Shown here: positions 1-59,474 of the stretch, one piece after another
Layout of the letters: every line of letters begins with the position of its first letter
Position numbering within the stretch: position 1 is the first letter of the stretch
Virus record (IMG/VR): IMGVR_UViG_3300045988_157167
Coordinates: 11,551 to 75,550 of that record
Source: a virus
DNA length: 64,000 bases
Strand: one strand, 5' to 3'
The notes under the pieces: generated by a model
Seen by the model: only the letters and a program-made list of their open reading frames with translations
Databases searched by the model: none
Told to the model about the DNA's origin: nothing
Position numbers and translations under genes: made by a program

Positions 1-3000
1 ACTTTATCCATATTAGCTTGGACTTGGATAGGTCTATCACTTATATCTCCTATAGTTTCTTTTAATGTTTCTCCTAGCGAATTAGCTATTTCTTTTACTG
101 TGTTATTACTTACACTATTTACAATTTTAAGATTACTGTTACTACTAGCTTCTAATGAAAATTTAGTTGTTTCAGATTGAACAGCCATTTTCATTGCATT
201 TTGCATTTCTGAAGTTACATCCCTAGCTACGGCATATACTTGTTCAGCTTTATTTTTCATACCAACAATTAAACCTTCGTCCATATATTCTCCATAATCA
301 GTGGTAACTTTTGAAGGCGAATTTATTTTAGCAGTTTTTTTCATTTCTGCATTAACTTGATTAACAAGACTTCTTGCTGCACTAACTGCTCTTGCTGTAC
401 CACTTTGAATGCCTTGAGTAACACCATTTGCTAATTGTTGACCAATTTCTCTTGATTGAGTTCTAGCAACATTTTTCATGCTTATCATTTGTCTTGTAAA
501 GTTATTTCTTGCTTCTCTTGATTGAGTAGTTATAACTCTTTTCATTGATATCATTTGATATGTAACAGCATTTCTAGCAAGTGTAATTTGTGTTCTAGAT
601 ACATTTCTAATTGATATCATTTGAGATGTAAGTTTATTCCTAGCCTCTGAAACTTGAGTTGATATAACATTCTTCATGCTTATCATTTGTGATGTAACAA
701 CATTTCTAGCATTTGTAATTTGATTACGTATTATATTACTAATAGATAGAAATTGGTTTCTTACTATATTAGATACATTTAAGCATTGATTTCTAGCTAC
801 GTTTGATATACTTACAAATTGATTTCTTGCTATATTTGCACATCCAACTAAACTAGTTCTTAAATTATTTTGTAATGATGTAAATGCTTGAGAAATTGAA
901 TTTGAAACACTTTGTACTGTTGTCTGTAAAGCTGTTAATTGTGTTTGTAATGCTTTTATTTCATCTGTGTTCATACTAGAAAGTTTAGAATTTATTTTGT
1001 TACTATTAGAATCTTTGCTAGTATTAAGAGGTTTTTCATTACCAGTCTTTTCATCAGCATAAGATTCCCCTGTAAACCAATTTACTAAACCTTGTATTAT
1101 ACCGGTACCACCTTTGCTAAAATCAGGTTTAGAACTAGTAATCCAACTTGTTATTGCTTGCCAAAGTTCTGATGCTCTACCAGTAAATCTGTCAGTTAAG
1201 TTTTCAATAAAACTATCAATAAAAATATCTGCAAAGCTACCAGTTAAAGATTTTATTTGTTCACTTCCTTCTACCCAGGAATTCATTACTGATGCAACTG
1301 CTTCTAAAGCATCATGTATATTGTCTGAATTGTTTTTTATTCCATCTCTTAAAGCATCTAAAATAACTTTACCAGCTTCCTCAACTTCTGGAGCAACATC
1401 TTTAATAAATTGAGAAATTTGTTTAATAGCACTTGAAATACCTTCTCTTATATCACCTTTACTTTTTATAATTCCTTGACAAATTTGATGTATAATTTCT
1501 TTACCGATAGCTAATACTCTGCTTAATCCACCTTTAGTTATAAAAGTATTAATTCCACTAAAAGCCTGTTGAATTGCTCCTGATATATCTGCATTTCTTA
1601 TATATCCAAGCATATTGTCTAATGCTTTTTTGAAATTATCAAATGTATATAAGACTTGGCCATCTTCTACAGTGCCTTCTTTATTTCCACTTCTCCAAAC
1701 ACTGAAAAACTCAGCTAATTTTTCAGAAGTAGATTGAATAGCTGGTTTTAAGAACTCAAATCCTTCTATAGCAACGTCTTGCAAAGCAGATGATAAAATT
1801 AATAATTTGTTTTTAGTTGTTTCATCCATAGCTTGCGCCATTTTTTCAGATAATCCAGTTACTAAATTTAAATTATCACAATATAATTTGAATTGTTCAT
1901 CAGATAAACCACATATTTCATTTATTTCATCTAAAGAATCAGATAAACCTAAATTTGTTAAAATTTGTTCTCTAGTCGCTTGATCCATGTTGCCAAATTT
2001 TTCTCTTAACTGAGTTAAATTTGCTATTAAGTCTATTTGGCCGGTAGATGCGCTTTTAGCAGACATTCCATATTCTTTTAATACTTTATTAGCTTCCTTA
2101 AGTGACATATCTGGATTTAACTTATCAATTATTTCTTGTTTAGAAACAACATCTTTTAACCCTTTAGCACTATCTACTATTCCTTTTGTATTTTCATTAA
2201 TCATGTCACAAGTAGCACTATAGTCAAAAGCATCATCATTAATTTCTTTATAAGTTAATCCAAGTTCTTTAAATTGCTTTTTCTGAGAATTTGTAGGATT
2301 TCTCATTGCATCTAATACACCGAATAAATCTTCAACATTTTTCGATGTTACTTTTGCATCAGAACCTAAAACTTGTAATGCTAAAGCCATATCTTGTGTA
2401 GTCATGTTGAATGCAGCACCTAAATATTCTGTTTGACTTAAAACTTCTTTTAAGTTATCTATTCTTTTACTACATTCTTCTCCAGTAACTCCTGCTTCTC
2501 CTAAATTTTGATTCCAATAAGAAACTGTTTGAGTAGAGTTTTGTACACTATCAGTTAAACTATCATATGCATCATCTGTAGCATTAACAATTGATAGTAA
2601 ACCTGTCATACCCGTTTTCCCAGCTAAATCTTTACATGCAGCTGCTTGCTCAACTAAAGGTAATGATTTTAAACTACTTCTTAAATTTCTTAATGTTTTA
2701 TCTAAGTCAACTGAACCATCTTTCGCAGTAATAAGTTCTATTCCGTATTTTTCCATGGCCTTTGCTACAGTATCGGTAGGTGCACTTAAATTTGCCAATA
2801 GTGTTCTCATTGCAGTACCTGCACGACTTCCCTTTACTGATGAATTCGCCATAAGGCCGATAGCTACGGATAAATCATCCATAGAAACGCCCAATGTCCC
2901 AGCTACTGAACCCGCATATTTCATTGTTTCTCCCATCATTTCAACATCTGTATTACTACGAGTAATAGTTGCTGCCATATAGTCAACAAAGTTTGATGCT

Positions 3001-3137: not shown

Positions 3138-3818
3138 ATACCGATAGGTAAAACTTTGATATACTTTATGTATAATCTCCATCTTTTCCCCCGGTCCAAA
3201 CCGTACGTGCGACTTTCATCGCATACGGCTTTCCATCGTAAAATTTTACGACTAGAGGCCTTCGCTCCTAATAGTTTTATCCTCCTTTATACATTACTGT
3301 ATATAGTAACTATCGGCTATTAATCAACACTACTATGCTTCCTCTGACTTCTTCTATTTTCAACGATATAGCAATCTCCAATAGAAGATCTCCTAAGTTC
3401 CAATAAGATTATCCCTTTTTTTACTTCGACTTAGGTTTCCTCTGTATGTTATAAGCTATATATAACTGACTACTTTAATCATCATATATTTAGTAAAACT
3501 TTAAATGTAAACAAAGTACGAATGTTTACATTAACTTATAACACTTCAAACAAGGATTCGTCTCCTAACCATATCAAAGTTTTTAAAGATGACCACTCCA
3601 TATAGTTATTTATATAACATCAGGCTTTGTCCTTACCGTACTTTATACAATTCGAGTGCTATCTCTTATGCATAACGGGGTATCATCAATATCACTTTAA
3701 AGTAGTTGTGATAGAAAGAAATTTCATCTTTCAATTCATCTTATTAGTTAAAGTTATAAATAACCTCTCAGCTTTTGTTCTCTATCTCAGAGCTTTTATA
3801 TGCTGAAACTTAGCGTAC
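3138..3818 (-). mobile_element. ORF-less group II intron inside the tape-measure gene
   Basis: 681 nt with no ORF on either strand. It starts GUACG and ends GGUAU, and has a canonical domain V near its 3' end. Flanking exons join in frame to give YMGM|AGF. Confidence 0.8.
3198..3231 (-). ncRNA. Group II intron domain V
   Basis: Minus strand reads AAGCCGUAUGCGAUGAAAGUCGCACGUACGGUUU. It has the AGC triad in the lower helix, a 2-nt CG bulge, a 5-bp upper helix and a U-G-closed GAAA tetraloop. Confidence 0.85.
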
Positions 3819-11385: not shown

Positions 11386-11631
11386 CTATAATTCTATATT
11401 TTCTATTTTTGCTCTTTCTTCTAATACATTTCTGTATGCTTCCATATATACTAATTGAGTGTGTAATATTTCATATGAGCAGTTAGGAGTAAAATTAAGA
11501 GTTCCATTTTTATATCCTTCTAGCATTCTTTGCAATCCAGCTATTCTATTATCTAGTTGATAATATTCAGCTTTAAATCTATCTTTAAAATCTGTTCCTA
11601 ACATTAAATCTACTGTATCTTGTAATTTCAT
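11386..11631 (-). CDS. Hypothetical protein
   Basis: ORF track; good RBS. Confidence 0.55.
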   Translation of the reverse strand: MKLQDTVDLMLGTDFKDRFKAEYYQLDNRIAGLQRMLEGYKNGTLNFTPNCSYEILHTQLVYMEAYRNVLEERAKIENIEL

Positions 11632-17065: not shown

Positions 17066-17143
17066 TGGCTGGCTTAGTGAGATTCGAACTCACAACAAAC
17101 CATGGTCCGTAGCCATGTGCTCTATCCGTTGAGCTATAAGCCA
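17066..17143 (-). tRNA. trnR: tRNA-Arg (anticodon ACG), CCA encoded
   Basis: Cloverleaf read by eye: acceptor TGGCTTA/TAAGCCA, D arm GCTC/GAGC, anticodon arm CATGG-CTACGGA-CCATG, T arm GTGAG-TTCGAAT-CTCAC. The variable loop is an unusual 7 nt. Confidence 0.75.
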
Positions 17144-17144
17144 A

Positions 17145-18017
17145 TATCTATTAGAAGGCTTGAGATTAGAGCCTTCTGTAGACACCTTTCACGGCATTAT
17201 TTATTCTCCGTTTATCCACGCACCTAATACGTATTGTCCATGACTGGTTGTAATTTTATAGTGCCACAAAACCCTAACACGAGGCACTCTACTATAGTAC
17301 TACTCAACACTTCGTATTCTGTCTGCCTTGCGAGCAACAAAGGTTTGCAAAACCACCATGCAACTTCATGTTAAACGATTCACCCTTGGGAGGTGTTACG
17401 CACTAGATTATATCATGCAATGATATTCTAGTATTAAGCCACTTTCATACTATAAGGGAACAGACTTTTCCTTTTATTGTTTTGTTATCATAGACAATTT
17501 ATCATCCAAAATTAATATTCTCTATGCCTGTATAAATCTGAATTAAATTTGACAGACGTTGTGCTGTTCTTGAAGATTCGTTTCCTTTTGAGACACGAAA
17601 TACTTCACAACATCAGTGTGTTTCATTGAATTCTTACTCCACGTTGTTAATACATACTCCAGCCCTTTCACTGTTTCACTATTAACAATGGTTAGTGCCC
17701 TTTGTTATCAGCATCGGACTATATAACCTCCTGATTATGTCTCGCTACATGACCAATTTGGCGTGAGGTAAATTATTCAGTGCCACCTGAAAATCTTCGA
17801 TATACGGTTCGCCTTTTCGAAGACTGTCCCTCTTGGGTTACGTAGTTATCTCCACTACTATCAATTCATGAAGACGTTGGACATTCAGTTCTGCTTAGAT
17901 GGACTAGTTTAACTAGCGGCATGTAGTCAGCATGCCTTTACACTGCTCACACAATGCTATCCTAAAGATACTAAGCTACCTAAAATAGATTTAGATTTAT
18001 TTTTTAAAACACATACA
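17145..18017 (-). ncRNA. Large (~870 nt) structured non-coding RNA candidate flanked by two tRNAs (GOLLD/ROOL-class guess)
   Basis: No ORF >=60 aa on either strand, and visibly higher G+C than coding DNA. Many local stems, e.g. 17153-17177, 17794-17823, 17918-17936. The minus strand is purine-rich. Confidence 0.55.
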
Positions 18018-18091
18018 TGGCTGGGCGTAATAGATTCGAACTATTATTCCAGGAATCAAAATCCTGTGTCCTACCTTTGAACGAACACCCA
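18018..18091 (-). tRNA. trnQ: tRNA-Gln (anticodon UUG), CCA encoded
   Basis: Acceptor TGGGTGT/ACGCCCA, anticodon arm CAGGA-TTTTGAT-TCCTG, T arm AATAG-TTCGAAT-CTATT; 74 nt. Confidence 0.85.
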
Positions 18092-18888: not shown

Positions 18889-20151
18889 TTAAACATATGC
18901 AAATGTATATCCATGCGTTGTTTTTCCTTTTCCTTGTAATACCCTTTCTATATTTTTTCTTGGGATATTTAGTTTTCTTGCACAAATCCCTATTCCCTCA
19001 ATAATTTCTTCTGAATTATCTTTTAAATTTGTTGCTTTAATAGTTTTCTTAGGAGCAACATTTTTGCTATATTTAGCTTTTACTGCCAATATAGAAGTGT
19101 AATCCTTACTTTCTATATATGGAATTAACTGTTGTTTTACATTTATAGCATCTTCTTCTGTTTTAAAATGGCCTATTGGTATCTGATTTCCATTAAAGGT
19201 TATTCTTAAAAACCAACTTTTCCTTTTAATATCATAATTAACTCCTTTTTCTTTGCTCTTATACATATTTTTATTTCTTATTTTTCTTAGCTTTTTACAT
19301 TGCTCTTGTAATCCTTCTCTTTCACACATTTTTTCAAGTGTATATCTCGAATGTCCAGTAAAATTTTCCATATCTATAAACGTTTCGATACCTTTTTCCA
19401 TTCCTTTTAAAAATTTTTGTTTCATTCGAGTATTTTTCACATCTTTAAAAACTTTACCATAATCTTTTATTTTTTCTTTGTAAAAAATAGTTCTAATGCT
19501 ATTTTCTGCAAGATTATATTTATTACAAAGTTCTTCTAAAGAATAATTATAAGAATATAAATCCTCTATAATTTTTTTATTTCTACACTCTATAAAATTT
19601 AATTGTTTGATTTTTTCATTTAAATCGGATCTCACATCTATCCAAGAGTCAAGATTTTTAATGCTATAAATGATATTTTCTCTAACTCCAGTTAATTTAG
19701 ATATTTTCTTTATAGAGATTGGATTATTTTCTAGTACTGACAACATTTCCTTAACCTTAGCAATTTGATGCTCTGTATAATCACTTCTTTCTCTATTTAC
19801 TTTCTTTAAATTTTCTAATCTTTTCTTTCGTATTTCTTCTGGAATTTCATTTAGAAAATAGTCTCCACCTTCTGTCATATTAAATCCATTATTATAAGTA
19901 TCATATTTTTTTATATAATACTTTTCTAAATCATTTAAAATGTCAAGTTCATCACAATAATATATAGCTTTAAACTTAAAAGCATCTTCTCCATATTTAT
20001 TCCAACTTCTTTGAAGATATTCATTATCATGATTACCTCTATTTAAAGCACTTATATGGCTTTTCCATCTTTTTTCAAAATCTTGGATCGTTTGTCCTAT
20101 ATACATATCACCTGTTACTACATTTGTTATTGAGTAAATTCCAAAATACAT
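18889..20151 (-). CDS. GIY-YIG homing endonuclease with AP2-like DNA-binding domain
   Basis: N-terminus YFGIYSITNVVTGDMYIGQT...R...H..L..G.H.N. C-terminal GVNYDIKRKSWFLRITFNGNQIPIGHFKTEEDA is AP2-type. Confidence 0.8.
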   Translation of the reverse strand: MYFGIYSITNVVTGDMYIGQTIQDFEKRWKSHISALNRGNHDNEYLQRSWNKYGEDAFKFKAIYYCDELDILNDLEKYYIKKYDTYNNGFNMTEGGDYFLNEIPEEIRKKRLENLKKVNRERSDYTEHQIAKVKEMLSVLENNPISIKKISKLTGVRENIIYSIKNLDSWIDVRSDLNEKIKQLNFIECRNKKIIEDLYSYNYSLEELCNKYNLAENSIRTIFYKEKIKDYGKVFKDVKNTRMKQKFLKGMEKGIETFIDMENFTGHSRYTLEKMCEREGLQEQCKKLRKIRNKNMYKSKEKGVNYDIKRKSWFLRITFNGNQIPIGHFKTEEDAINVKQQLIPYIESKDYTSILAVKAKYSKNVAPKKTIKATNLKDNSEEIIEGIGICARKLNIPRKNIERVLQGKGKTTHGYTFAYV

Positions 20152-42450: not shown

Positions 42451-43698
42451 TTATATCACACTATCTAACCAATAAATTTTATTATATTTCCAAAGTAATC
42501 TACATTTTCTTACATTGACTTTTTTGCAATGTTTTGTAGGACTTTGAAAATTTAATGCGTTCAAATGTGGATATAATGCTGTAACATATCCTTTATGAGT
42601 TTCTCCATTTCTGTAAGTATATTCAACCAAATCTCTATGTTTAATTCCTAATACATTATCTGTTTTTGCTTTTGATTTTCTACGCATCGGTTTAATCATC
42701 CATTCTTTTATATTGCAAGTATCTGGAAAACAATTTGTTATACAAATAGCATCGTTTGAATGAGATTTTTCTATATTCCATTCAATTCTTTTATTTGCAG
42801 TATCTCCACCTGTTGTAAGATGTAATATTCCTAATTGTTTAATATTTTCTCTAAGATAATTTTTACCTTGCATGACATGCATTGCATAATCAAATCTTTT
42901 TGGCTTACTTTTTATTTTGGTGAAATATCTCTCTTCAAATTCTCGTTCTTTCCCTTCTGTCTTTTGATGACAAGAAGAACAAAGAGTAATGAGATTCCCA
43001 ATAGTATTTGCTCCACCAAATCTCTTTGCTCGAATATGATGAACCTCAAGTACAGTATTTGTTTTTCCACATTCTTGACATTTACAACTATCTCTTAATA
43101 TTGTCGCTTTTCTAAGATTTTCATCTAATCTATTATTCTTCTGATATTGCCAATTATAAGGTTTATATCCATCGGCCATTGCTCTTATATCTATTGCTAC
43201 ATCTTCAAGATAATATTCTTTAATATTTATCCATTTATTTAATTGATATAAAACTCTAAGAATAGAATCTTTCTTTTGTTTAATACTTGGCGCTAATCTA
43301 TTAGTTTTTTTTGAAGATGCTCTATTATTGAATCTAGGTTTACGATATCTTTTATGATATCTACGGTATTGTCTATATCCTCTACGAACATCCATTAAGT
43401 GTTTTACATCTTGTCTTTGTTCAATAGTTCCTTTAAATACAACTTTATTTTTACTTGGACATTTTTGAACAATTGCTATTCCAACATGAGAACTACCATC
43501 GTCAATTCCACAAACCATATGACTTTCATCTTCGTCATCAGGTTCAACTTCTTTTTCTAACTGAATTACCATAGGATATTTACTTTTTAATTTTGCTCGA
43601 CCTTTTCTAATCAAATACCAACCTTTATTTACTTTAGTTGGAGCTAAAGGTCTATTGTTTTTATCTACAACAAAACAATATTCAATTTTATTTTCCAT
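42451..43698 (-). CDS. iscB: IscB RNA-guided nuclease (copy 1)
   Basis: PLMP-type N-terminus ([26 protein letters not shown]), Ruv[16 protein letters not shown], an Arg-rich bridge helix, Ruv[28 protein letters not shown], and Ruv[13 protein letters not shown]. Confidence 0.85.
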
Positions 43699-43973
43699 CT
43701 CTGGACACCTTCCTTTCGGAGAATTTTTCGTCTTGGGAATGTCAAGTAGAGGATATGTGTTTCCCTGTTATCAATACAGGACATTAGCATTGTTTCTTGG
43801 TTAGCACTCACAGAGTTTCAGACTGACGATTACATCTAAAAGTGTGTGTTTACCTTACTACTCAACATAGTTCATATCTGCAATATATGTTTCCATAAAA
43901 GCAGTCACTAACCCTTGAAACCTCTTGTTAAGCCATATACAAAAGACTAATGTGTCCACTTTTCTATATGTTT
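43699..43973 (-). ncRNA. Omega-RNA (HEARO-type) candidate for IscB copy 1
   Basis: ~275 nt ORF-free, G+C-enriched block abutting the iscB start. Contains stems such as cctgt-attgata-acagg. A 9-bp hairpin at 43974-43999 sits at its 5' edge. Confidence 0.65.
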
Positions 43974-46610: not shown

Positions 46611-47021
46611 TTAAAAAGGTATGTCATCATCATCTATAGCTTGAAATCCATTTGGATCTAACCCTGGATTTGTTATATTATTTGTTCCTTGTTGATTATC
46701 TTTCGGATAATCTAATGCTTGTACACTTCTACCACTAACCTTAGTAAAAGTTCTATTTTCTCCATCTTGAGTTTGATATCTATCAACTCTAAGATTTCCT
46801 TGAATAGCAACTAATCTACCTTTTGTTATATAATTAGCACAAAATTCAGCTGCTTTCCCTATAACTTCTATTGGTATAAAGTCTGTTTCTTTTGTCCCAT
46901 CTTTTTTCTTATAGTCTCTGTCTATTGCCATCGTAAAAGTAGCAACAGGTGTTCCAGAATTAGGTATGTATCTTAACTCTGGGTCTTTTGTTAATCGTCC
47001 TACTAAAACTACATTATTCAT
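46611..47021 (-). CDS. ssb: Single-stranded DNA-binding protein
   Basis: MNNVVLVGRLTKDPELRY OB-fold N-terminus and a DDDIPF tail. Confidence 0.9.
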   Translation of the reverse strand: MNNVVLVGRLTKDPELRYIPNSGTPVATFTMAIDRDYKKKDGTKETDFIPIEVIGKAAEFCANYITKGRLVAIQGNLRVDRYQTQDGENRTFTKVSGRSVQALDYPKDNQQGTNNITNPGLDPNGFQAIDDDDIPF

Positions 47022-47613
47022 CTTTACCTTTCCTTTCACTAACTTTCATTATTAATTTAGCTATATTTGAACCCGTTTTCGTCAATTCTTTATCATGAAA
47101 AATTAATTTTTCATGGTTCATTCTTAGTAATTGACTTTTATTAATTAATATTAAATTATCTTTTTCTAAGTTCAATTTGTTTTGATCAGCAAATATAACT
47201 ACATCATCTTGTGTTAATTTGATATTATGATATTTTTCATATAGAATCCTATGCTTCAACTTCCACACATTAGGTTCTTTTACTTTCATTAGAATATATC
47301 CATTACTATCAATTCTTTCACTACCAATTTCTTTTTTATTCCAAGGTTTACAACCTTTTTGAAAAGAAGTTTTATTTGGACCAGTAAGTCCTTTAGTTCC
47401 TTTATTCCACGTTTTATGTCCCTTTTGAAACTGGCCATCAAACTCTGTGTTATATCCATATCTTTTAATTGCACTTGTTATTTGACTTAGTTTGAATTTA
47501 TACTCAAATTTTTCGTTCATTAAGTCTAATATTTCCTTACGATGTTTCCCTGGAGTAATTTCTCCAAGATACTTTTTTTCTTCTTCACTCCATTTATGTG
47601 GTTTTTCGCTCAT
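47014..47613 (-). CDS. HNH homing endonuclease (HNH_3-like with Myb-like N-terminus)
   Basis: SNGYILMKV...WKLKHRILYEKY...ADQNKLNLEKDNLILI. Confidence 0.65.
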   Translation of the reverse strand: MSEKPHKWSEEEKKYLGEITPGKHRKEILDLMNEKFEYKFKLSQITSAIKRYGYNTEFDGQFQKGHKTWNKGTKGLTGPNKTSFQKGCKPWNKKEIGSERIDSNGYILMKVKEPNVWKLKHRILYEKYHNIKLTQDDVVIFADQNKLNLEKDNLILINKSQLLRMNHEKLIFHDKELTKTGSNIAKLIMKVSERKGKDE

Positions 47614-50289: not shown

Positions 50290-50407
50290 CCTCGTTTTTT
50301 TTATTTTTCTTTGTTAAATATTGATAAACGAACCCCAGTGTATCAATATCTTTATTTTGTTTTAACAAAATTATTATTTCTTCTTTTAATTTTGTTATAT
50401 AGTCCAT
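50276..50407 (-). CDS. Small hypothetical protein (43 aa)
   Basis: Read by eye: MDYITKLKEEIIILLKQNKDIDTLGFVYQYLTKKNKKNEENKK. RBS gggggag. Confidence 0.35.
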   Translation of the reverse strand: MDYITKLKEEIIILLKQNKDIDTLGFVYQYLTKKNKKNEENKK

Positions 50408-50554
50408 AGCATCTCCCCCAAAACAGCTTAATAATATCGAACTTACGTTCTATGTAGATATATTATAATACTAATTTTCATAAAATTCTATACCTTATTT
50501 ACATTATACTTCCATTTATTGCCATTTTGTCTATTTGTCCCCCATTGCGGGACA

Positions 50555-50755
50555 CTATTTGTATTCAGAATCAAATAAGTCAGTTATTCTACAACCTAAA
50601 GCTATCGCTATTTTTTCTAGCTTTACTAGATCCAGTACTGTATCGTTATTCTCCAGTCTAAAGAGAGTACTTTTACTTAGTTTAGTTTTGTATGCTAACT
50701 TTCTAAGACTATGATTTTTCTCGTTTCTTACCTTTGAAATATTGTTGATTATCAT
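50555..50755 (-). CDS. XRE-family HTH (cro-like) protein
   Basis: RNEKNHSLRKLAYKTKLSKSTLFRLENN. Confidence 0.65.
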   Translation of the reverse strand: MIINNISKVRNEKNHSLRKLAYKTKLSKSTLFRLENNDTVLDLVKLEKIAIALGCRITDLFDSEYK

Positions 50756-50832
50756 AAAATTTATTCTAAAATAACTGCTTTTTCTCGTAAATGTAAAATA
50801 TTTGGTTAATATTCCACAAAAACACTAGAAAA

Positions 50833-50862
50833 GAAAAAAAATCCACCTTCCGCAAGATGGAT
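50833..50862 (-). terminator. Rho-independent terminator of mini-cassette 3
   Basis: Stem atccaccttccgcaagatggat plus an 8-T run on the minus strand. Confidence 0.65.
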
Positions 50863-50945
50863 TTTCTTCTAAATAATCATAGGTCATATATAAGATATAG
50901 AAATACTTTTAACAATTTAATTATAACATTCCAATACTTATTTGA

Positions 50946-50965
50946 AAATCGGAACATATTCCTAA
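50946..50965 (-). promoter_or_regulatory. Copy 2 of the 20-bp motif (TTAGGAATATGTTCCGATTT)
   Basis: 19/20 identity to the other copies. TGtTATAAT follows 20 nt downstream on the minus strand. Confidence 0.55.
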
Positions 50966-50971
50966 CTTTTA

Positions 50972-51010
50972 CAAAAAAACAACCGCTCTTGATGAGGGTT
51001 AAGAGCGGTT
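50972..51010 (-). terminator. Rho-independent terminator of mini-cassette 2
   Basis: 10-bp stem aaccgctctt/aagagcggtt plus a T-run on the minus strand. Confidence 0.7.
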
Positions 51011-51133
51011 AGGGAGTATTGTTTCATACCATAAATTCTAATGATAAACAATATACTAGAAATATTTTAGGAATAAAAAAATATAATCTTAGATAACTAT
51101 ATTATTAATGATACTACTGTTTTTTCAAAACTT

Positions 51134-51153
51134 CAATCGGAACATATTCCTAA
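51134..51153 (-). promoter_or_regulatory. Copy 3 of the 20-bp motif
   Basis: Exact TTAGGAATATGTTCCGATTG. Confidence 0.55.
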
Positions 51154-51160
51154 TTAACAA

Positions 51161-51197
51161 TAAAAAATAACTACCTCACAGATGGAAAGGTAGTTAT
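51161..51197 (-). terminator. Rho-independent terminator of mini-cassette 1
   Basis: 10-bp stem ataactacct/aggtagttat plus a T-run on the minus strand. Confidence 0.7.
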
Positions 51198-51285
51198 TCT
51201 TTAAGAAAGGAGTACTTATATTAGTAATATAGCTAAAACTTTAAGTCTTATACAATATAAGATTAACACCTTTCATTTCCAATTA

Positions 51286-51305
51286 CAATCGGAACATATT
51301 CCTAT
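51286..51305 (-). promoter_or_regulatory. Copy 4 of the 20-bp motif (ATAGGAATATGTTCCGATTG); contains the TAG stop of the upstream ORF
   Basis: 19/20 identity. Confidence 0.55.
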
Positions 51306-51619
51306 ATATTTTTATAAGTGAATTTTACAAAAGTTCCGTTTTCAGTTTTAGCCTTAACTCTGGCAACTTCTGTTGTTTCATCTATTTCTAGACTTTTAAT
51401 AGCTTGAAGAACCATATTTGTTGTACAATTTTTAGTTTTAAATTCAATAATATCATCTGTATATTTTACAGTTGCATTTGACATACTAAAATCTACCCCA
51501 CAAATAGTTAATACATATACATTAACTTTTTCTCCTTCAAATGGTTCTAGAAATTTTTTAATTTCCCATTGTTCAAATAATTTTTTAACCTTTTCGAGAA
51601 AGAAGTCCCCTTCTATAAT
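51302..51619 (-). pseudogene. 3' part of a small gene split by the IscB element (ORF track lists only 51302..51484)
   Basis: The reading frame stays open 45 codons upstream of the tracked ATG (..IIEGDFFLEKVKKLFEQWEIKKFLEPFEGEKVNVYVLTICGVDFS-MSNATV..), right into the element's end hairpin. Confidence 0.5.
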
Positions 51620-51645
51620 TTAGCCGTAGGCAAATTTAGGAGGGG
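51607..51645 (-). repeat. Right-end (RE) subterminal hairpin of the IscB element
   Basis: Plus strand reads ccccttctataatttagccgtaggcaaatttaggagggg. Confidence 0.7.
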
Positions 51646-51679
51646 ATGAATTTCTCTGATATTGAATCAATATAGAATT

Positions 51680-53062
51680 TTATATCGCAAAATTACTTTC
51701 GTATTGCCAATTATTATTATGATTTATGAATTTCAAGGCATAAATTGAAACTTGTTTATATTTTTTGCCTGGTATAGTTATATACTCATCATTTATATTT
51801 TTTACATAAGCAGATGATTTGCCAGAAAAACCTGTAATATAACCAATTTGACCAAAGATTTCTACTTTATCATTAAGGTAAAAACCATTTGCAAAACTTG
51901 TATTTTTCTCATTTCTTTTGCTTTCAGTGTTTTTAGTTTTTCTACCTTTTCTAGCTGTCGCTTCATGCAGTGAACGTTTTTTCTTTCTAAACTGCTTTAT
52001 TTTAAAAACTTCATCACAGTTTTGATTTATACATTCAACTTTACTTATTGCAATAGCATCGTTATAATGAGTTTTCTCAAGTCCAAGTTTTTTTCTTCTT
52101 GGTGTTGTTATAGAACCATAAGTTATGTTAGCTTGAGGATATTTTTTAAATACTTTTACCCTCATTGAGTTCATAAACGGTGGTTCTTTATAAGTTTTCA
52201 TCTTTTTCTTTTTTATCATCCATTCATAAAGTATGCCGCCTGGTTTATGATTCTCAGATGTGTGACAATCAGTACAAATTGTAGCTAAGTTGTCAGCTCT
52301 ATCGCTTCCACCTTTACTTTTATAAATTACATGATGTGTATGAAGTACTTTATCTTTACTTTTTTTACAAACCTGGCAAGTGTAATTATCTCTTGCAAAG
52401 ACAAAGTATCTCGTATTATAAAAGCCGAAGGCTTCGCCTTGTTGATAATCAGCACCTTCTATTTCTGGATTTATCATTTTAGCCATATCAAATTTACCTA
52501 CTTCAATACTTAAATTGCATTTTGGAAGTAAATTATAATATTTATCAATCCAGAAAAATGTATTATCTATTTTAGACTGTATGCTTGGCGGCAGCCAACC
52601 AACAGGTCTATTTGAATCTATGTTTGTAGATAGTGTTCTCCAGTTCTTTTTGGAGTCACTACCTTTTTTAAGAGTTTTTAGTTTTGCTCCTTTTGGAGCA
52701 TTAAAAACTCTTTTATTTCTGAAGTTAAATTTACATCTTCTATATCTAGTTTTTCTAGAACGTCTACCTCTTCTTAGAATTTTTTTAGTTTCTATTAAAC
52801 TACTTACATCTTGTCTAAGTTCTATTTCACCTTTTGCTAATACTTTATTTTGGGTAGTTACAGCTATACCAATGTTTTTAGAACCTAAATCGACACCTAA
52901 ATTAGTATTTTGTGTATATCCATAAGAACCGTAAATAAGTTTTATTGTAAATGGTTTATAATTTACTATCTTTGCTTTCTTTTCTTTTATTAATTTTCTA
53001 GCACGTTGAGGCTTACAAGGCATCAACGGCTTATTGTTTTTATTAAGTACGTATACTACCAT
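51680..53062 (-). CDS. iscB: IscB RNA-guided nuclease (copy 2; start moved to MVVYVLNKNNKPLMPC behind RBS ggagg)
   Basis: Literal PLMP motif, RuvC-I GVDLGSKNIGIAV, RuvC-II SIEVGKFD, HNH CQVCKK..HTHHV..N..TIC..CH, and RuvC-III HYNDAIAIS. The tracked 28-codon N-terminal extension overlaps the RNA block. Confidence 0.85.
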   Translation of the reverse strand: MVVYVLNKNNKPLMPCKPQRARKLIKEKKAKIVNYKPFTIKLIYGSYGYTQNTNLGVDLGSKNIGIAVTTQNKVLAKGEIELRQDVSSLIETKKILRRGRRSRKTRYRRCKFNFRNKRVFNAPKGAKLKTLKKGSDSKKNWRTLSTNIDSNRPVGWLPPSIQSKIDNTFFWIDKYYNLLPKCNLSIEVGKFDMAKMINPEIEGADYQQGEAFGFYNTRYFVFARDNYTCQVCKKSKDKVLHTHHVIYKSKGGSDRADNLATICTDCHTSENHKPGGILYEWMIKKKKMKTYKEPPFMNSMRVKVFKKYPQANITYGSITTPRRKKLGLEKTHYNDAIAISKVECINQNCDEVFKIKQFRKKKRSLHEATARKGRKTKNTESKRNEKNTSFANGFYLNDKVEIFGQIGYITGFSGKSSAYVKNINDEYITIPGKKYKQVSIYALKFINHNNNWQYESNFAI

Positions 53063-53403
53063 AAAGTATACCTCCTTCGAGTTATTTGAATCACCGACCA
53101 AAAGTGGTGGGCGACACGAAATTTTCCCTTCGCCAATGTTAAGCATACTTCTTGCACCAAGTTGACTGTTCTTACCTCACAGAACTGTTTACAGAGCCCG
53201 AACAACAAAAGGTGCTAGGGAATCACACCAAGCTGTATTGATACACTTAACGTAGCTTATTCGCTGTGCCAAATCGCACATCCCGACAAGCTAAGGCTAG
53301 ACAATATTAAGGCAAAAGCCTTACCCCCAAATCTAGAGTCATACTGGGGCTTATATTGAAATACAAGCCCCTTCTATAATCTCCGTAGGTGATTTAGGAG
53401 GGG
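53063..53403 (-). ncRNA. Omega-RNA (HEARO-type) candidate for IscB copy 2, including the left-end hairpin
   Basis: ~340 nt, ORF-free and markedly G+C-rich. Stems include ggggctt/aagcccc, aaggc-tttt-gcctt, tgtgc/gcaca, ggcga/tcgcc and cacc/ggtg. Confidence 0.7.
53368..53403 (-). repeat. Left-end (LE) subterminal hairpin of the IscB element
   Basis: Plus strand reads ccccttctataatctccgtaggtgatttaggagggg. Confidence 0.7.
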
Positions 53404-53427
53404 TTATTGACTGTTATTATTTTTCAT
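53404..53427 (-). pseudogene. 5' stub (RBS + ATG + 6 codons, MKNNNSQ-stop) of the gene split by the IscB element
   Basis: RBS gaagggg, then ATG at 53427. The stop lies exactly at the hairpin boundary. Confidence 0.45.
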
Positions 53428-53490
53428 TTTTACTACCCCTTCTCTAATTAATATCATTCAACTTTAAAACCTGAATAGTCGGTAAAAATA

Positions 53491-53588
53491 GTCCCTGTCA
53501 TGTTGATTGTCCCTGTCACTCTTACCCACTATCATCATTATAAAATCAATAGCTAAAACCTCTCTCTGTTTTTATAATAGTCCCTGTC
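53491..53588. repeat. Three copies of gtccctgtc (two extended to aatagtccctgtc)
   Basis: Copies at 53491-53499, 53509-53517 and 53580-53588, in the promoter region upstream of the split gene. Confidence 0.65.
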
Positions 53589-53669
53589 TCTCTTAAAAGT
53601 AATTTTTCATTTAGAGTAGAGGCTTTAGCATTTTTTATGTTATTTTTAATCCGCTAGGGTAGTGGAAAT

Positions 53670-54128
53670 TTACCCTAGTAATTCATATAATCGTTGTTGT
53701 CTTTCATACTCTTTTAAAGTCTTTTGAGATTTATTTCTAAACTCTAATCTTAGGTTAGATCTTCTACAATTTTCAGGATTATTATCTTTGAATACTATTT
53801 TAAAAAATCTTGTATTATACGCTCCAAAGAATCCTTCGTAAACTAATTTATGAACTGGAATATTTTTTCTTTTACCATTTTGGACCAATGTTACAGTTTT
53901 ATATCTGTGAGTATAAAAAACTTTCAACTCTTTCCAAACAACACTTCCATAATCAATTTTATCTAGTGTTTGATGCTCAAATCTTTTCTTGCTGCTAAAT
54001 ACTCTTCCAAAACTAGTTATGTAATAATCATCAAAGTTTGTAACTGGAACAGCATCTTCATCTATAAATAAATAATCTTTAATTGTATCTTTCATCAAGT
54101 TCTTCCAGTTGTTCTCTGTTATATTCAC
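53670..54128 (-). CDS. NUMOD4/HNH_3-like homing-endonuclease-family protein (HNH His possibly degenerate)
   Basis: YYITSFGRVFS (NUMOD4-like), HKLVYEGFFG, DNNPENCRRSNLRL. Confidence 0.5.
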   Translation of the reverse strand: MNITENNWKNLMKDTIKDYLFIDEDAVPVTNFDDYYITSFGRVFSSKKRFEHQTLDKIDYGSVVWKELKVFYTHRYKTVTLVQNGKRKNIPVHKLVYEGFFGAYNTRFFKIVFKDNNPENCRRSNLRLEFRNKSQKTLKEYERQQRLYELLG

Positions 54129-54729
54129 GATAATCCTCCCCTCTTAAAACTCTATCTTCAATATATTTGTCAAATTCCTCTGTGCTTTCAAATTTATATC
54201 TAGTTTTCTTTGCAAATTTATATCCTTCTGCATGTGCTTGTCTTTCTGCTTCTGTAATGATAATATCTATTCTTTTCATAATGTCTTTATATAGATCTTC
54301 GTTCATTTCCGCATCATGCTTTGCACAATTAGAAAGTAATTTATCTATTTTTAGATAGTTACGAGCAAATACTTTACTTCTAATAAACTCGTAGTTGTGT
54401 GAAGTTACTGCATGCGGTTTTGTGTTTCTTTTAATATAATCTTCTACTTTTTTATCTTGTTTTTCTTTATAAACATCACTAATAGGTTTAAAAGGTTCAT
54501 AATCTCTTAAAAATAATCCCTCTATGACCTTTATAAGCATTTTTAAAAGATTAATAACTAAATATAAGCTAAATCTACAAAGTTTTATTACAAGGGCAAA
54601 TACAACCTCAAGCCATGAACTATATTCAGTTTTTTCTTTATATCCTTCTAAATGTTCTTCTTTGCTTAAAATATAAGTTGCTTTTGTTTTTTTATCTCTA
54701 TCTAATATTTCTATACTATCATTTTGCAT
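54079..54729 (-). CDS. Hypothetical protein with a central TM segment
   Basis: ORF track. Confidence 0.5.
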   Translation of the reverse strand: MQNDSIEILDRDKKTKATYILSKEEHLEGYKEKTEYSSWLEVVFALVIKLCRFSLYLVINLLKMLIKVIEGLFLRDYEPFKPISDVYKEKQDKKVEDYIKRNTKPHAVTSHNYEFIRSKVFARNYLKIDKLLSNCAKHDAEMNEDLYKDIMKRIDIIITEAERQAHAEGYKFAKKTRYKFESTEEFDKYIEDRVLRGEDYREYNREQLEELDERYN

Positions 54730-54913
54730 TCCAACCCCTCCAATCTAAAATTTTAATTGCAAGTGATCTTAAAATTGGATTAGAATACAAAAAATCTTTT
54801 ATTTCTTCCTCTTTTCTTTTTATTGCCTTTTCTTCATCTGACAATACATCGACAAAAAATATTTTTTCTAAATTCATATTATCGTCGAACATTTTGACTT
54901 TATGTCTTCTCAT
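54719..54913 (-). CDS. Hypothetical protein
   Basis: ORF track; RBS ggagga. Confidence 0.5.
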   Translation of the reverse strand: MRRHKVKMFDDNMNLEKIFFVDVLSDEEKAIKRKEEEIKDFLYSNPILRSLAIKILDWRGWNAK

Positions 54914-58467: not shown

Positions 58468-58926
58468 ATGAATATAGCAATAGAACAAGCAACTTACAAC
58501 GAACGATTTATGTTAAAAGCAACAAATGAAATATCAAAACAATTTGGGTTCAATATTATTCAAGAACGAGCTTTATATGATACATTATACAAATGTACAC
58601 GAAATGTAGAAATGTACTTGATTACAAGTGAGGAGGGAGATTTTTACACATATATAGACTTATATTTAAAATCTAAAAGATTAGAAGGAATTCAAAGTAA
58701 TACTTTACAAAATACAAAATATAAACTAGTAGAATTGAATAATTACATAGGAAAGAAAATTGAAGATATAACAGTAACTGATTTAAAAATGTATATTTTT
58801 CATAAACAAAATGATTGCTTACCGAGTACTGTAAACGGACTAATCACATGCATAAAAGAATTTTTTAAATATTTATATGAAGACGAGTATATAAGTACTA
58901 ATCCAGCTAGGAAATTAAAAAAATGA
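58468..58926 (+). CDS. Tyrosine recombinase (XerC/D-like), N-terminal SAM-like domain; ends at the A7 frameshift site
   Basis: The ..STNPARKLKK C-terminus is typical of the linker before the catalytic domain. Confidence 0.7.
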   Translation: MNIAIEQATYNERFMLKATNEISKQFGFNIIQERALYDTLYKCTRNVEMYLITSEEGDFYTYIDLYLKSKRLEGIQSNTLQNTKYKLVELNNYIGKKIEDITVTDLKMYIFHKQNDCLPSTVNGLITCIKEFFKYLYEDEYISTNPARKLKK

Positions 58927-59474
58927 AGGAAGATAAAAGATTAAAACATTCGCTAAACGAAGTTGTATTTGAACATGTAAGAATGAGTTGTAAAAATTCT
59001 AGAGATAGAGCAATAATAGAATTTCTATATGCTACAGGTTTAAGAGTTTCAGAACTAGTGAATCTTAATAGATCTGATATAGACCCGAATGCAAATAGTT
59101 TAAAAGTAATTGGAAAGGGAAATAAAGAAAGAGTAGTTATATATTCTGATGTAGCAAAGTTTTATTTACAAAATTATTTAAATGAAAGAAAAGACGATAA
59201 TGATGCTTTATTTGTATCAGTTAAAAAACCATATAAAAGACTTACAACTAGAGTTGTGCAAAAGATGTTTGAAAGAATAAAAAAAGATATAGGACTATCA
59301 GGAGATTTTAGCCCTCACGTTTTACGACATACTTTCGCAACTCGTTTAGCTGCTACTGCAGATATTACAACAGTACAAAAGCTTTTGGGCCACACAAACA
59401 TAAATACAACACTCATATATGCTGAAATGAGTGACGATAAAATAGCATATGAATATAAAAAATCAAAATTATAA
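58923..59474 (+). CDS. Tyrosine recombinase catalytic domain (-1 frame relative to 58468..58926)
   Basis: ATGLRVSEL (Arg), HVLRHTFAT (HxxR), GHTNINTTLIYAE (His..Tyr). Confidence 0.75.
   Translation: MKEDKRLKHSLNEVVFEHVRMSCKNSRDRAIIEFLYATGLRVSELVNLNRSDIDPNANSLKVIGKGNKERVVIYSDVAKFYLQNYLNERKDDNDALFVSVKKPYKRLTTRVVQKMFERIKKDIGLSGDFSPHVLRHTFATRLAATADITTVQKLLGHTNINTTLIYAEMSDDKIAYEYKKSKL

Follow-up and report, generated by a model that had tools for sequence, protein, structure and literature searches.

Studies of transposon-encoded nucleases have reported that the target motif of the transposon is also the target-adjacent motif (TAM) of the nuclease, that the nuclease cuts the donor joint, and that IscB elements run in the same direction as the gene upstream of them (Meers et al. 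2023, bioRxiv 10.1101/2023.03.14.532601). In the same study about 1.5% of iscB genes lay near the transposase gene tnpA, and gene drive by TnpB in plasmids has been demonstrated experimentally (PMC11870625). IscB/omega-RNA elements that lack tnpA, guides derived from the flank and a TAM identical to the insertion motif are already the published norm, and the locus reported here adds no new principle to them. We analysed a stretch of 64,000 nucleotides of viral DNA (positions 11,551 to 75,550 of IMG/VR record IMGVR_UViG_3300045988_157167; hereafter the window, numbered from its first letter), which carries at 51589-53411 (minus strand, 1823 bp) a non-autonomous IscB/omega-RNA element of the IS200/IS605 family. 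With a probability of roughly 0.85, we read it as a mobile insertion sequence (IS) with IscB and omega-RNA as cargo, moved by the transposase TnpA in trans and homing or retained through IscB. What gives this locus its value is that empty, filled and remnant alleles observed in a single lineage define its boundaries, its TTTAA motif and its predicted guide and TAM.

Boundaries and ends of the element

The limits of the element were set by comparing filled with empty insertion sites and by the limits of homology elsewhere. Using the neighbouring 216-aa protein as a query, we found 13 loci of the same backbone in IMG/VR, and in nine of them both the site occupied in the window (site 1) and a second site discussed below (site 2) were uninterrupted. 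The empty site 1 reads ...AAAAATGAAAAATAATAACA/TTAAAAAATTATTTG... (slashes mark junctions), and the junctions of the filled site in the window read ...AATAACA/GTCAATAACCCC...CTCGAAAAGG/TTAAAAAATT...; in short form, the empty ...AATAACA/TTAAAAAA... corresponds to the filled ...AATAACA/GTCAATAA...GAAAAGG/TTAAAAAA.... From this comparison it follows that the element spans 51589-53411 and was inserted without duplication. The insertion was precise, with no bases gained or lost, and adjoins a TTTAA motif; terminal inverted repeats and a target-site duplication are both absent. It split a phage open reading frame (ORF), intact at 100 aa in an empty-site relative (L025), after codon 5. The 3' part of this ORF lies at 51302-51588 (minus strand), where a start codon is kept only in an internal ORF of 60 aa (51302-51484).

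The same junctions recurred in independent assemblies. Public metagenome assemblies contain the exact protein encoded by the element, here called IscB2, in 119 index blocks, and all ten of the loci that we inspected were on contigs of 62-103 kb with the same phage-plasmid-like backbone and identical junctions. Between different insertion contexts, homology starts exactly at GTCAATAA and stops 11-12 nt past the second hairpin. A megablast search with 50300-54800 against phage and plasmid collections gave no match. A 13-mer at 53436-53448, considered as a further part of the element, was ruled out since it also occurs in empty sites; it belongs to the phage backbone, in the ribosome-binding region of the interrupted gene. 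A preliminary description of this DNA had proposed a complete but non-autonomous element on a phage-plasmid-like genome, which the empty and filled sites, the second site and the homologues elsewhere bear out. The extent that it gave, 51600-53410, located the element but fell short of its true limits, which lie 18 nt and 8 nt past the hairpins; the predicted guide (53412-53427) falls just outside that range.

Subterminal imperfect hairpins are present at both ends, at exactly the coordinates first proposed for them. The left-end hairpin (51607-51645, plus strand) is 39 nt long and conserved in relatives, and the right-end hairpin (53368-53403, plus strand) is 36 nt long, its other strand corresponding to positions ~9-31 of the HEARO model. 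The two are in direct orientation and share identical arms of 13 nt and 12 nt that occur nowhere else in the 64 kb. Folded as single-stranded DNA, a 72-nt left-end stretch with its hairpin reached -14.7 kcal/mol (z -4.5) on the plus strand and -12.9 on the minus strand, and a 57-nt right-end stretch reached -9.4 kcal/mol (z -3.3) and -6.8, respectively. The plus strand of the hairpins has a G·T wobble where the minus strand has a C·A mismatch. Both hairpins also stand at the ends of homologous elements and are kept in relatives with at least 80% IscB identity, with the exception of L118. In that copy (L118:2883-3000, 86% IscB identity), the left hairpin has the opposite orientation to that in the rest of the family, and the conserved ACTTCTT tail and the TTAAA junction are gone; it has probably lost its left end.

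The TTTAA motif lies at 51584-51588 (plus strand), immediately 5' of the canonical left end, and reads TTAAA in the orientation of iscB. It stands at the omega-RNA-distal end in all ten independent insertion contexts, and by analogy with the elements of Meers et al. we infer that TTTAA/TTAAA acts as the TAM. Between the predicted cleavage site and the foot of the left hairpin is a tail of 18 nt (51589-51606, plus strand), the last 7 nt of which, AAGAAGT, are conserved and are a candidate for the region containing the 'guide' tetranucleotide of TnpA. From the foot of the right hairpin to its cleavage site there are 8 nt, TTATTGAC (53404-53411, plus strand), and the complement of this tail, GUCAAUAA, is the first helix of the omega-RNA. 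The end sequences are AAGAAGT-CCCCTTCTA on the left and GGAGGGG-TTATTGAC on the right.

Four lines of evidence place the left end after the iscB stop codon and together rule out the converse assignment with the left end beside the omega-RNA: where TTTAA lies, the 18/8-nt asymmetry, the strand on which the hairpins fold better, and the precedent of Meers et al. On this evidence the canonical top strand of the element is the plus strand, opposite to iscB, with the left end at 51589 and the right end at 53411. The IS200/IS605 layout of subterminal hairpins that had been proposed for this element therefore stands, with its left and right labels reversed. Subterminal hairpins, absence of inverted repeats, motif-specific insertion, absence of duplication and asymmetric predicted cleavage positions, all of them features of the IS200/IS605 family, were found here.

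The IscB2 protein, its omega-RNA and the predicted guide

The iscB gene occupies 51680-53062 (minus strand) and encodes 460 aa followed by a stop codon. Its ATG at 53062, the relocated start of the preliminary description, is preceded by a GGAGG ribosome-binding site and is common to the relatives in the alignment; a longer ORF from 53146 overlaps the omega-RNA and was rejected as unsupported. An IscB is defined by an N-terminal PLMP domain, a bridge helix rich in arginine (Pfam RRXRR) and a split RuvC into which an HNH domain is inserted, and IscB2 has all of these. Pfam detected RRXRR (1e-52) and HNH (5e-11), and the protein contains KPLMPC (residues 11-16, with PLMP at 12-15), GVDLGS (56-61), SIEVGKFD (185-192), CQVC (229-232), HTHHV (241-245), CTDCH (263-267) and HYNDAIAIS (332-340). 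The best-matching solved structures are IscBs (TbaIscB and OgeuIscB, 7XHT/7UTN; E ~1e-36), with which the RuvC-I aspartate D58, the RuvC-II glutamate E187, the HNH residues H241-H244 and the RuvC-III residues H332/D335 align. Every PLMP, RuvC-I, HNH and RuvC-III motif first read from the sequence is thus present, and the Pfam and structure matches confirm the IscB homology. Judged from its substitutions, with a ratio of nonsynonymous to synonymous change (dN/dS) of 0.10-0.15 relative to relatives, iscB is under purifying selection. The closest named relatives of IscB2 are Bacillus IscBs at ~62% identity, and a scan of GTDB genomes found only relatives of 52-60% identity (in Paenibacillus, Aneurinibacillus, Sulfobacillus and one metagenome-assembled genome of Eubacteriales).

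Upstream of iscB, the omega-RNA scaffold extends over 53063-53411 (minus strand). Rfam RF02033 (HEARO) matched over the full model (1-211) with 80.2 bits (E 5.4e-16), in the right position and on the right strand, spanning 53411 to 53118; 3' of this match there is an extra hairpin (~53111-53092) and then the ribosome-binding site of iscB. At the Rfam gathering threshold both omega-RNAs of the window were missed, and both were found only in E-value mode. Elements with IscBs 56-87% identical to IscB2 gave HEARO matches of 73-114 bits. The 349 nt of 53063-53411 have a G+C content of 43%, compared with 28.5% for the window. When six omega-RNAs from elements with IscB proteins 56-100% identical were compared in RNAalifold, 18 of the 43 predicted pairs had compensatory changes on both sides, in what is a small sample with no phylogenetic control. 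The full-length HEARO match and the compensatory pairs indicate a conserved structure in the G+C-rich block that the preliminary description had noted before iscB.

Directly 5' of the scaffold, in flanking phage DNA outside the transposon, lies the predicted guide AUGAAAAAUAAUAACA (53412-53427, minus strand), which begins at the ATG of the interrupted phage gene; its length of 16 nt is a prediction adopted from published IscB systems. In each of the eight contexts with a readable junction, a different 16-nt stretch precedes GTCAATAA. Read from 53427 to 53412, the guide matches the empty site, where TTAAA follows, whereas at the occupied site in the window the protospacer is followed by GTCAA. 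This match to an empty site next to TTAAA fits the published model of homing and retention by TnpB and IscB. IscB2 is accordingly predicted, from sequence, to cleave double-stranded DNA next to the TAM under RNA guidance, at the target ATGAAAAATAATAACA followed by TTAAA. Upstream of the interrupted phage gene, we also observed three intergenic TAGTCCCTGTC-like repeats (53483-53595), which are possible operator or promoter elements, in which case they would drive the omega-RNA as well.

Mobility, proposed mechanism and competing explanations

Evidence of movement came from site 2, TATTGGAATGTTATAA followed by TTAAA (50916-50936, minus strand), which lies ~670 bp from site 1 and likewise at a TTTAA motif. 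In the window this site is intact and unoccupied at ~50918 (GGAATGTTATAA/TTAAATTGTT). In two other contigs, IMGVR_UViG_3300045988_162897 (L011/L033) and OGMJ01000062.1 (L122), site 1 is empty and the element is at site 2, again inserted precisely and without duplication. The site-2 copy is 98.9% identical to the copy in the window (20 differences in 1823 nt). Since two sites are occupied by copies only 1.1% apart, the element has moved recently. No contig with both sites filled was present among the backbone contigs compared. More distant relatives, with 80-87% IscB identity, adjoin a phage ERF/SSB/resolvase region, GmrSD genes, a DNA ligase and helicases. The differences between the site-1 and site-2 (L033) copies were unevenly spread, with 9 of the 20 in the 349-nt omega-RNA (2.6%, compared with 0.75% elsewhere), and several of these sit in an insertion relative to the HEARO model.

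Mini-elements of 62-65 bp were also observed, at L121:3121-3182 and at L125 ~1164-1225 (minus strand). Each joins the left tail to the right tail TTATTGAC through one hybrid hairpin and abuts TTTAA. L121 is the same phage-plasmid, with its 62-bp mini-element at site 2 and site 1 empty. The crossover points differ, with a right-type loop in L121 and a left-type loop in L125, which suggests that the mini-elements arose as deletions by recombination between the direct-repeat hairpins, or as miniatures like the palindrome-associated transposable elements (PATEs). We take PATEs, as miniature IS200/IS605 derivatives, to be the nearest likeness; unlike them, those in L121 and L125 contain only one hairpin, a hybrid, and may be deletion scars rather than mobile miniatures.

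A Y1 (HUH) transposase was absent from the 64 kb, as the preliminary description had stated: six-frame tblastn and phmmer searches with IS608 TnpA gave a best E of 0.37, and Pfam scans of 29 ORFs did not find Y1_Tnp. The query, an IS608 TnpA sequence, was validated with Pfam as Y1_Tnp (1e-42). The best tblastn match, at 43669-43836 (plus strand; 28% over 58 aa, E 0.37), is on the strand opposite to the other IscB gene of the window, copy 1, and overlaps the copy-1 omega-RNA; it is most likely due to chance. When metagenome and viral collections were scanned for the left-end pattern, every element recovered was either IscB-bearing or a miniature, and none was an autonomous partner. Because only ~1.5% of iscB genes are near tnpA, its absence here is not surprising. 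By analogy with related elements, a Y1 TnpA would mobilise this element in trans; the mobility itself is seen indirectly, in the polymorphism of the sites.

The steps of the mechanism that we propose are modelled on IS608 and ISGst, while the precise insertion, the recent movement, the dN/dS and the intact omega-RNA are seen at this locus. A Y1 HUH TnpA from the host or a co-resident element would bind both subterminal hairpins on the plus strand, cut 18 nt before the left hairpin and 8 nt after the right one, and move the single strand by peel-and-paste. Transcription of the omega-RNA would start in phage DNA beyond the right end, probably as read-through from the promoter of the interrupted gene, and the first ~16 nt of the RNA would therefore be a copy of the flank, AUGAAAAAUAAUAACA. 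Transcription from outside is consistent with the position of the element, which is co-directional with an expressed phage gene and lies just inside it, and with the orientation bias in Meers et al. The IscB-RNA complex would then recognise only the uninterrupted site, with protospacer and TTAAA, and spare the occupied site with GTCAA. Cutting of empty copies after excision would restore the element, and cutting of sister copies of a multicopy phage-plasmid, or of co-infecting relatives, would force repair from the occupied copy, giving retention and spread in the manner of a homing endonuclease or gene drive. Empty copies on such a replicon would be converted or eliminated, an outcome demonstrated for TnpB in plasmids (PMC11870625).

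Several observations weigh against this account. No TnpA was detected by tblastn and phmmer in 115 related loci (742 kb) or by tblastn in six further metagenome loci. The HEARO score of 80.2 is 3 bits under the curated Rfam gathering cut-off of 83, a shortfall that coincides with two long insertions relative to the model. No omega-RNA promoter was located: when 51300-53900 was scanned for promoters and terminators, hits were no more numerous than in shuffled sequence. Finally, the G+C skew of the window suggests leading-strand composition on the minus strand, which would not obviously put the inferred top strand on the lagging-strand template.

Other explanations must be weighed against the same evidence. 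The hairpins might not be transposase sites, the upstream one being a stem of the omega-RNA and the downstream one a terminator of iscB, in which case the element would spread solely through breaks made by IscB and recombination. The upstream hairpin does lie within the HEARO consensus, and a U-rich stretch follows the downstream hairpin in the iscB sense. However, homing by recombination alone cannot bring the element to a new site where it acquires a new guide, as seen at site 2 and in other contexts; the insertions always abut TTTAA and lack duplications, the hairpins have arms in common within an element and fold better on the strand opposite to the RNA, and the 62-bp single-hairpin derivatives retain both tails. 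We regard this explanation as very improbable. Even less credible, by a little, is an inactive relic, a decaying IscB pseudo-element: although no transposase is nearby and a phage gene was interrupted without apparent consequence, the ORF and all catalytic motifs are intact, dN/dS is ~0.1, the omega-RNA is intact with covariation, and the site-1 and site-2 copies differ by only 1.1%.

A somewhat stronger competitor, which we still judge unlikely, is that the element has been immobilised and co-opted by the phage-plasmid as a weapon, whose fixed guide cuts rivals with the uninterrupted allele and so excludes competitors. This would agree with the lack of tnpA in the searched window and loci, with the identical protein and junctions across many metagenomes (119 index blocks, ten of ten inspected loci) and with a guide that matches the allele of nine sister contigs; the site-1 and site-2 variants would also target each other. 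Yet the transposon has kept both of its ends intact, its guide is a new one at site 2 and in other contexts, mini-elements exist, and exclusion would be a by-product of homing activity rather than a separate mechanism. A mobile IS moved by TnpA in trans, with IscB acting in homing and retention, is thus the reading that we prefer. An extension of it follows from the polymorphism: because each variant retains the intact target of the other, site-1 and site-2 variants would target each other. We put forward only tentatively, and as a doubtful possibility, that this amounts to a reciprocal RNA-guided gene drive or an exclusion weapon between co-infecting variants, in which the 62-bp remnant is a cleavage-resistant allele. 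If true, this would be a natural population-level example of IscB homing and resistance on a virus.

The carrier genome and comparison with known systems

The other IscB of the window, copy 1 (415 aa; 42451-43698, minus strand), has its omega-RNA region at 43721-43956 (minus strand), with a weak HEARO match (31 bits, E 4.5e-4). No G+C-rich hairpin was visible in the 59 nt between its stop codon and the next gene (RecT). The preliminary description was right that the second IscB is divergent; at 29% identity, the two are distant relatives rather than unrelated systems. Ten IMG/VR loci of the lineage carry copy 1 at 100% identity, at least five of them on contigs without copy 2 at site 1, and relatives of it (57-96% identical) occur in 67 further viral loci in other contexts. 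Both IscB families were found in several unrelated sequence contexts. As copy 1 is identical in the ten loci, copy 2 is a polymorphic insertion, and both families occur in unrelated contexts, the idea that the presence of two IscBs in one genome reflects selection was not supported. Two independent selfish insertions suffice to explain them and are the simpler reading; copy 1 may be an older, fixed or decayed insertion.

From its sequence, the carrier appears to be a clostridial phage-plasmid-like genome. Its portal protein shares 41-46% identity with portals from Clostridium perfringens and Clostridioides difficile phages, and its winged-helix Rep-like protein shares 48% with one from a Paraclostridium plasmid. 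It also has a weak, below-cut-off terminase match and encodes a ParM-type actin-like ALP_N protein; a holin and an amidase are encoded in sister contigs. The carrier is rich in selfish elements. Three homing-type nucleases (18889-20151, 53670-54128 and 47014-47613, all minus strand) comprise one GIY-YIG/NUMOD protein and two ORFs with weak, below-cut-off HNH_3 matches, and one homing-type nuclease ORF lies immediately upstream of the site where IscB2 inserted. A match to the Rfam family Intron_gpII, a group II catalytic intron (3138-3233, minus strand, 64 bits), is at the downstream edge of the morphogenesis genes, and the start of the window may cut this intron and its ORF. In a sister contig (L008:351-1493), a TnpB gene (OrfB_IS605/Cas12f-like), with no tnpA nearby, takes the place where other sisters have lysis genes. 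We further observed a full-length GOLLD RNA (17157-17615, minus strand; 187 bits, E 5e-51) with tRNAs at 17069-17143 and 18021-18091 in the same stretch, and a tyrosine recombinase split into two ORFs (58468-58926 and 58923-59474, plus strand) that carry the SAM-like N-terminal domain and the catalytic domain, respectively. Sister contig L002 has one integrase ORF of 334 aa with the same two domains, and the split may be a frameshift or an assembly error.

The locus offers a convenient natural polymorphic system in which to study homing or gene drive by IscB on a multicopy viral replicon, and a compact IscB of 460 aa with an AT-rich predicted TAM. Among solved proteins, OgeuIscB (7XHT, 7UTN, 8CSZ) has the same order of PLMP, RuvC-I, bridge helix, RuvC-II, HNH and RuvC-III, with aligned catalytic motifs, and its omega-RNA is likewise of the HEARO family. 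OgeuIscB is 496 aa long compared with 460 aa here, and the match (E 5e-36) spans residues 2-369 only, the C-terminal TAM-interacting region not being alignable by sequence.

The ends resemble those of IS608 of Helicobacter pylori (PMC3201880), which has subterminal imperfect hairpins at both ends, is cleaved 19 nt 5' and 10 nt 3' of them (18 and 8 here), and inserts on the 3' side of a short specific motif, neither gaining nor losing bases, the target being TTAC in IS608 and TTTAA here. In IS608 both tnpA and tnpB are on the top strand, whereas here iscB is on the bottom strand and there is no tnpA. A close likeness is also found in ISGst of Geobacillus stearothermophilus (Meers et al. 2023, bioRxiv 10.1101/2023.03.14.532601), which also has iscB as its only cargo, no tnpA, a guide taken from flanking DNA, an AT-rich motif of 5 nt abutting its left end on the 5' side that is both target and TAM (TTCAT in ISGst, predicted as TTTAA here), and an orientation shared with the upstream gene. 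The two differ in the branch of the protein, in the motif and in the carrier, a chromosome for ISGst and a clostridial phage-plasmid-like genome here. Apart from its HEARO score, the element has, at the level of sequence, every feature of an ISGst-type non-autonomous IscB element of the IS605 family.

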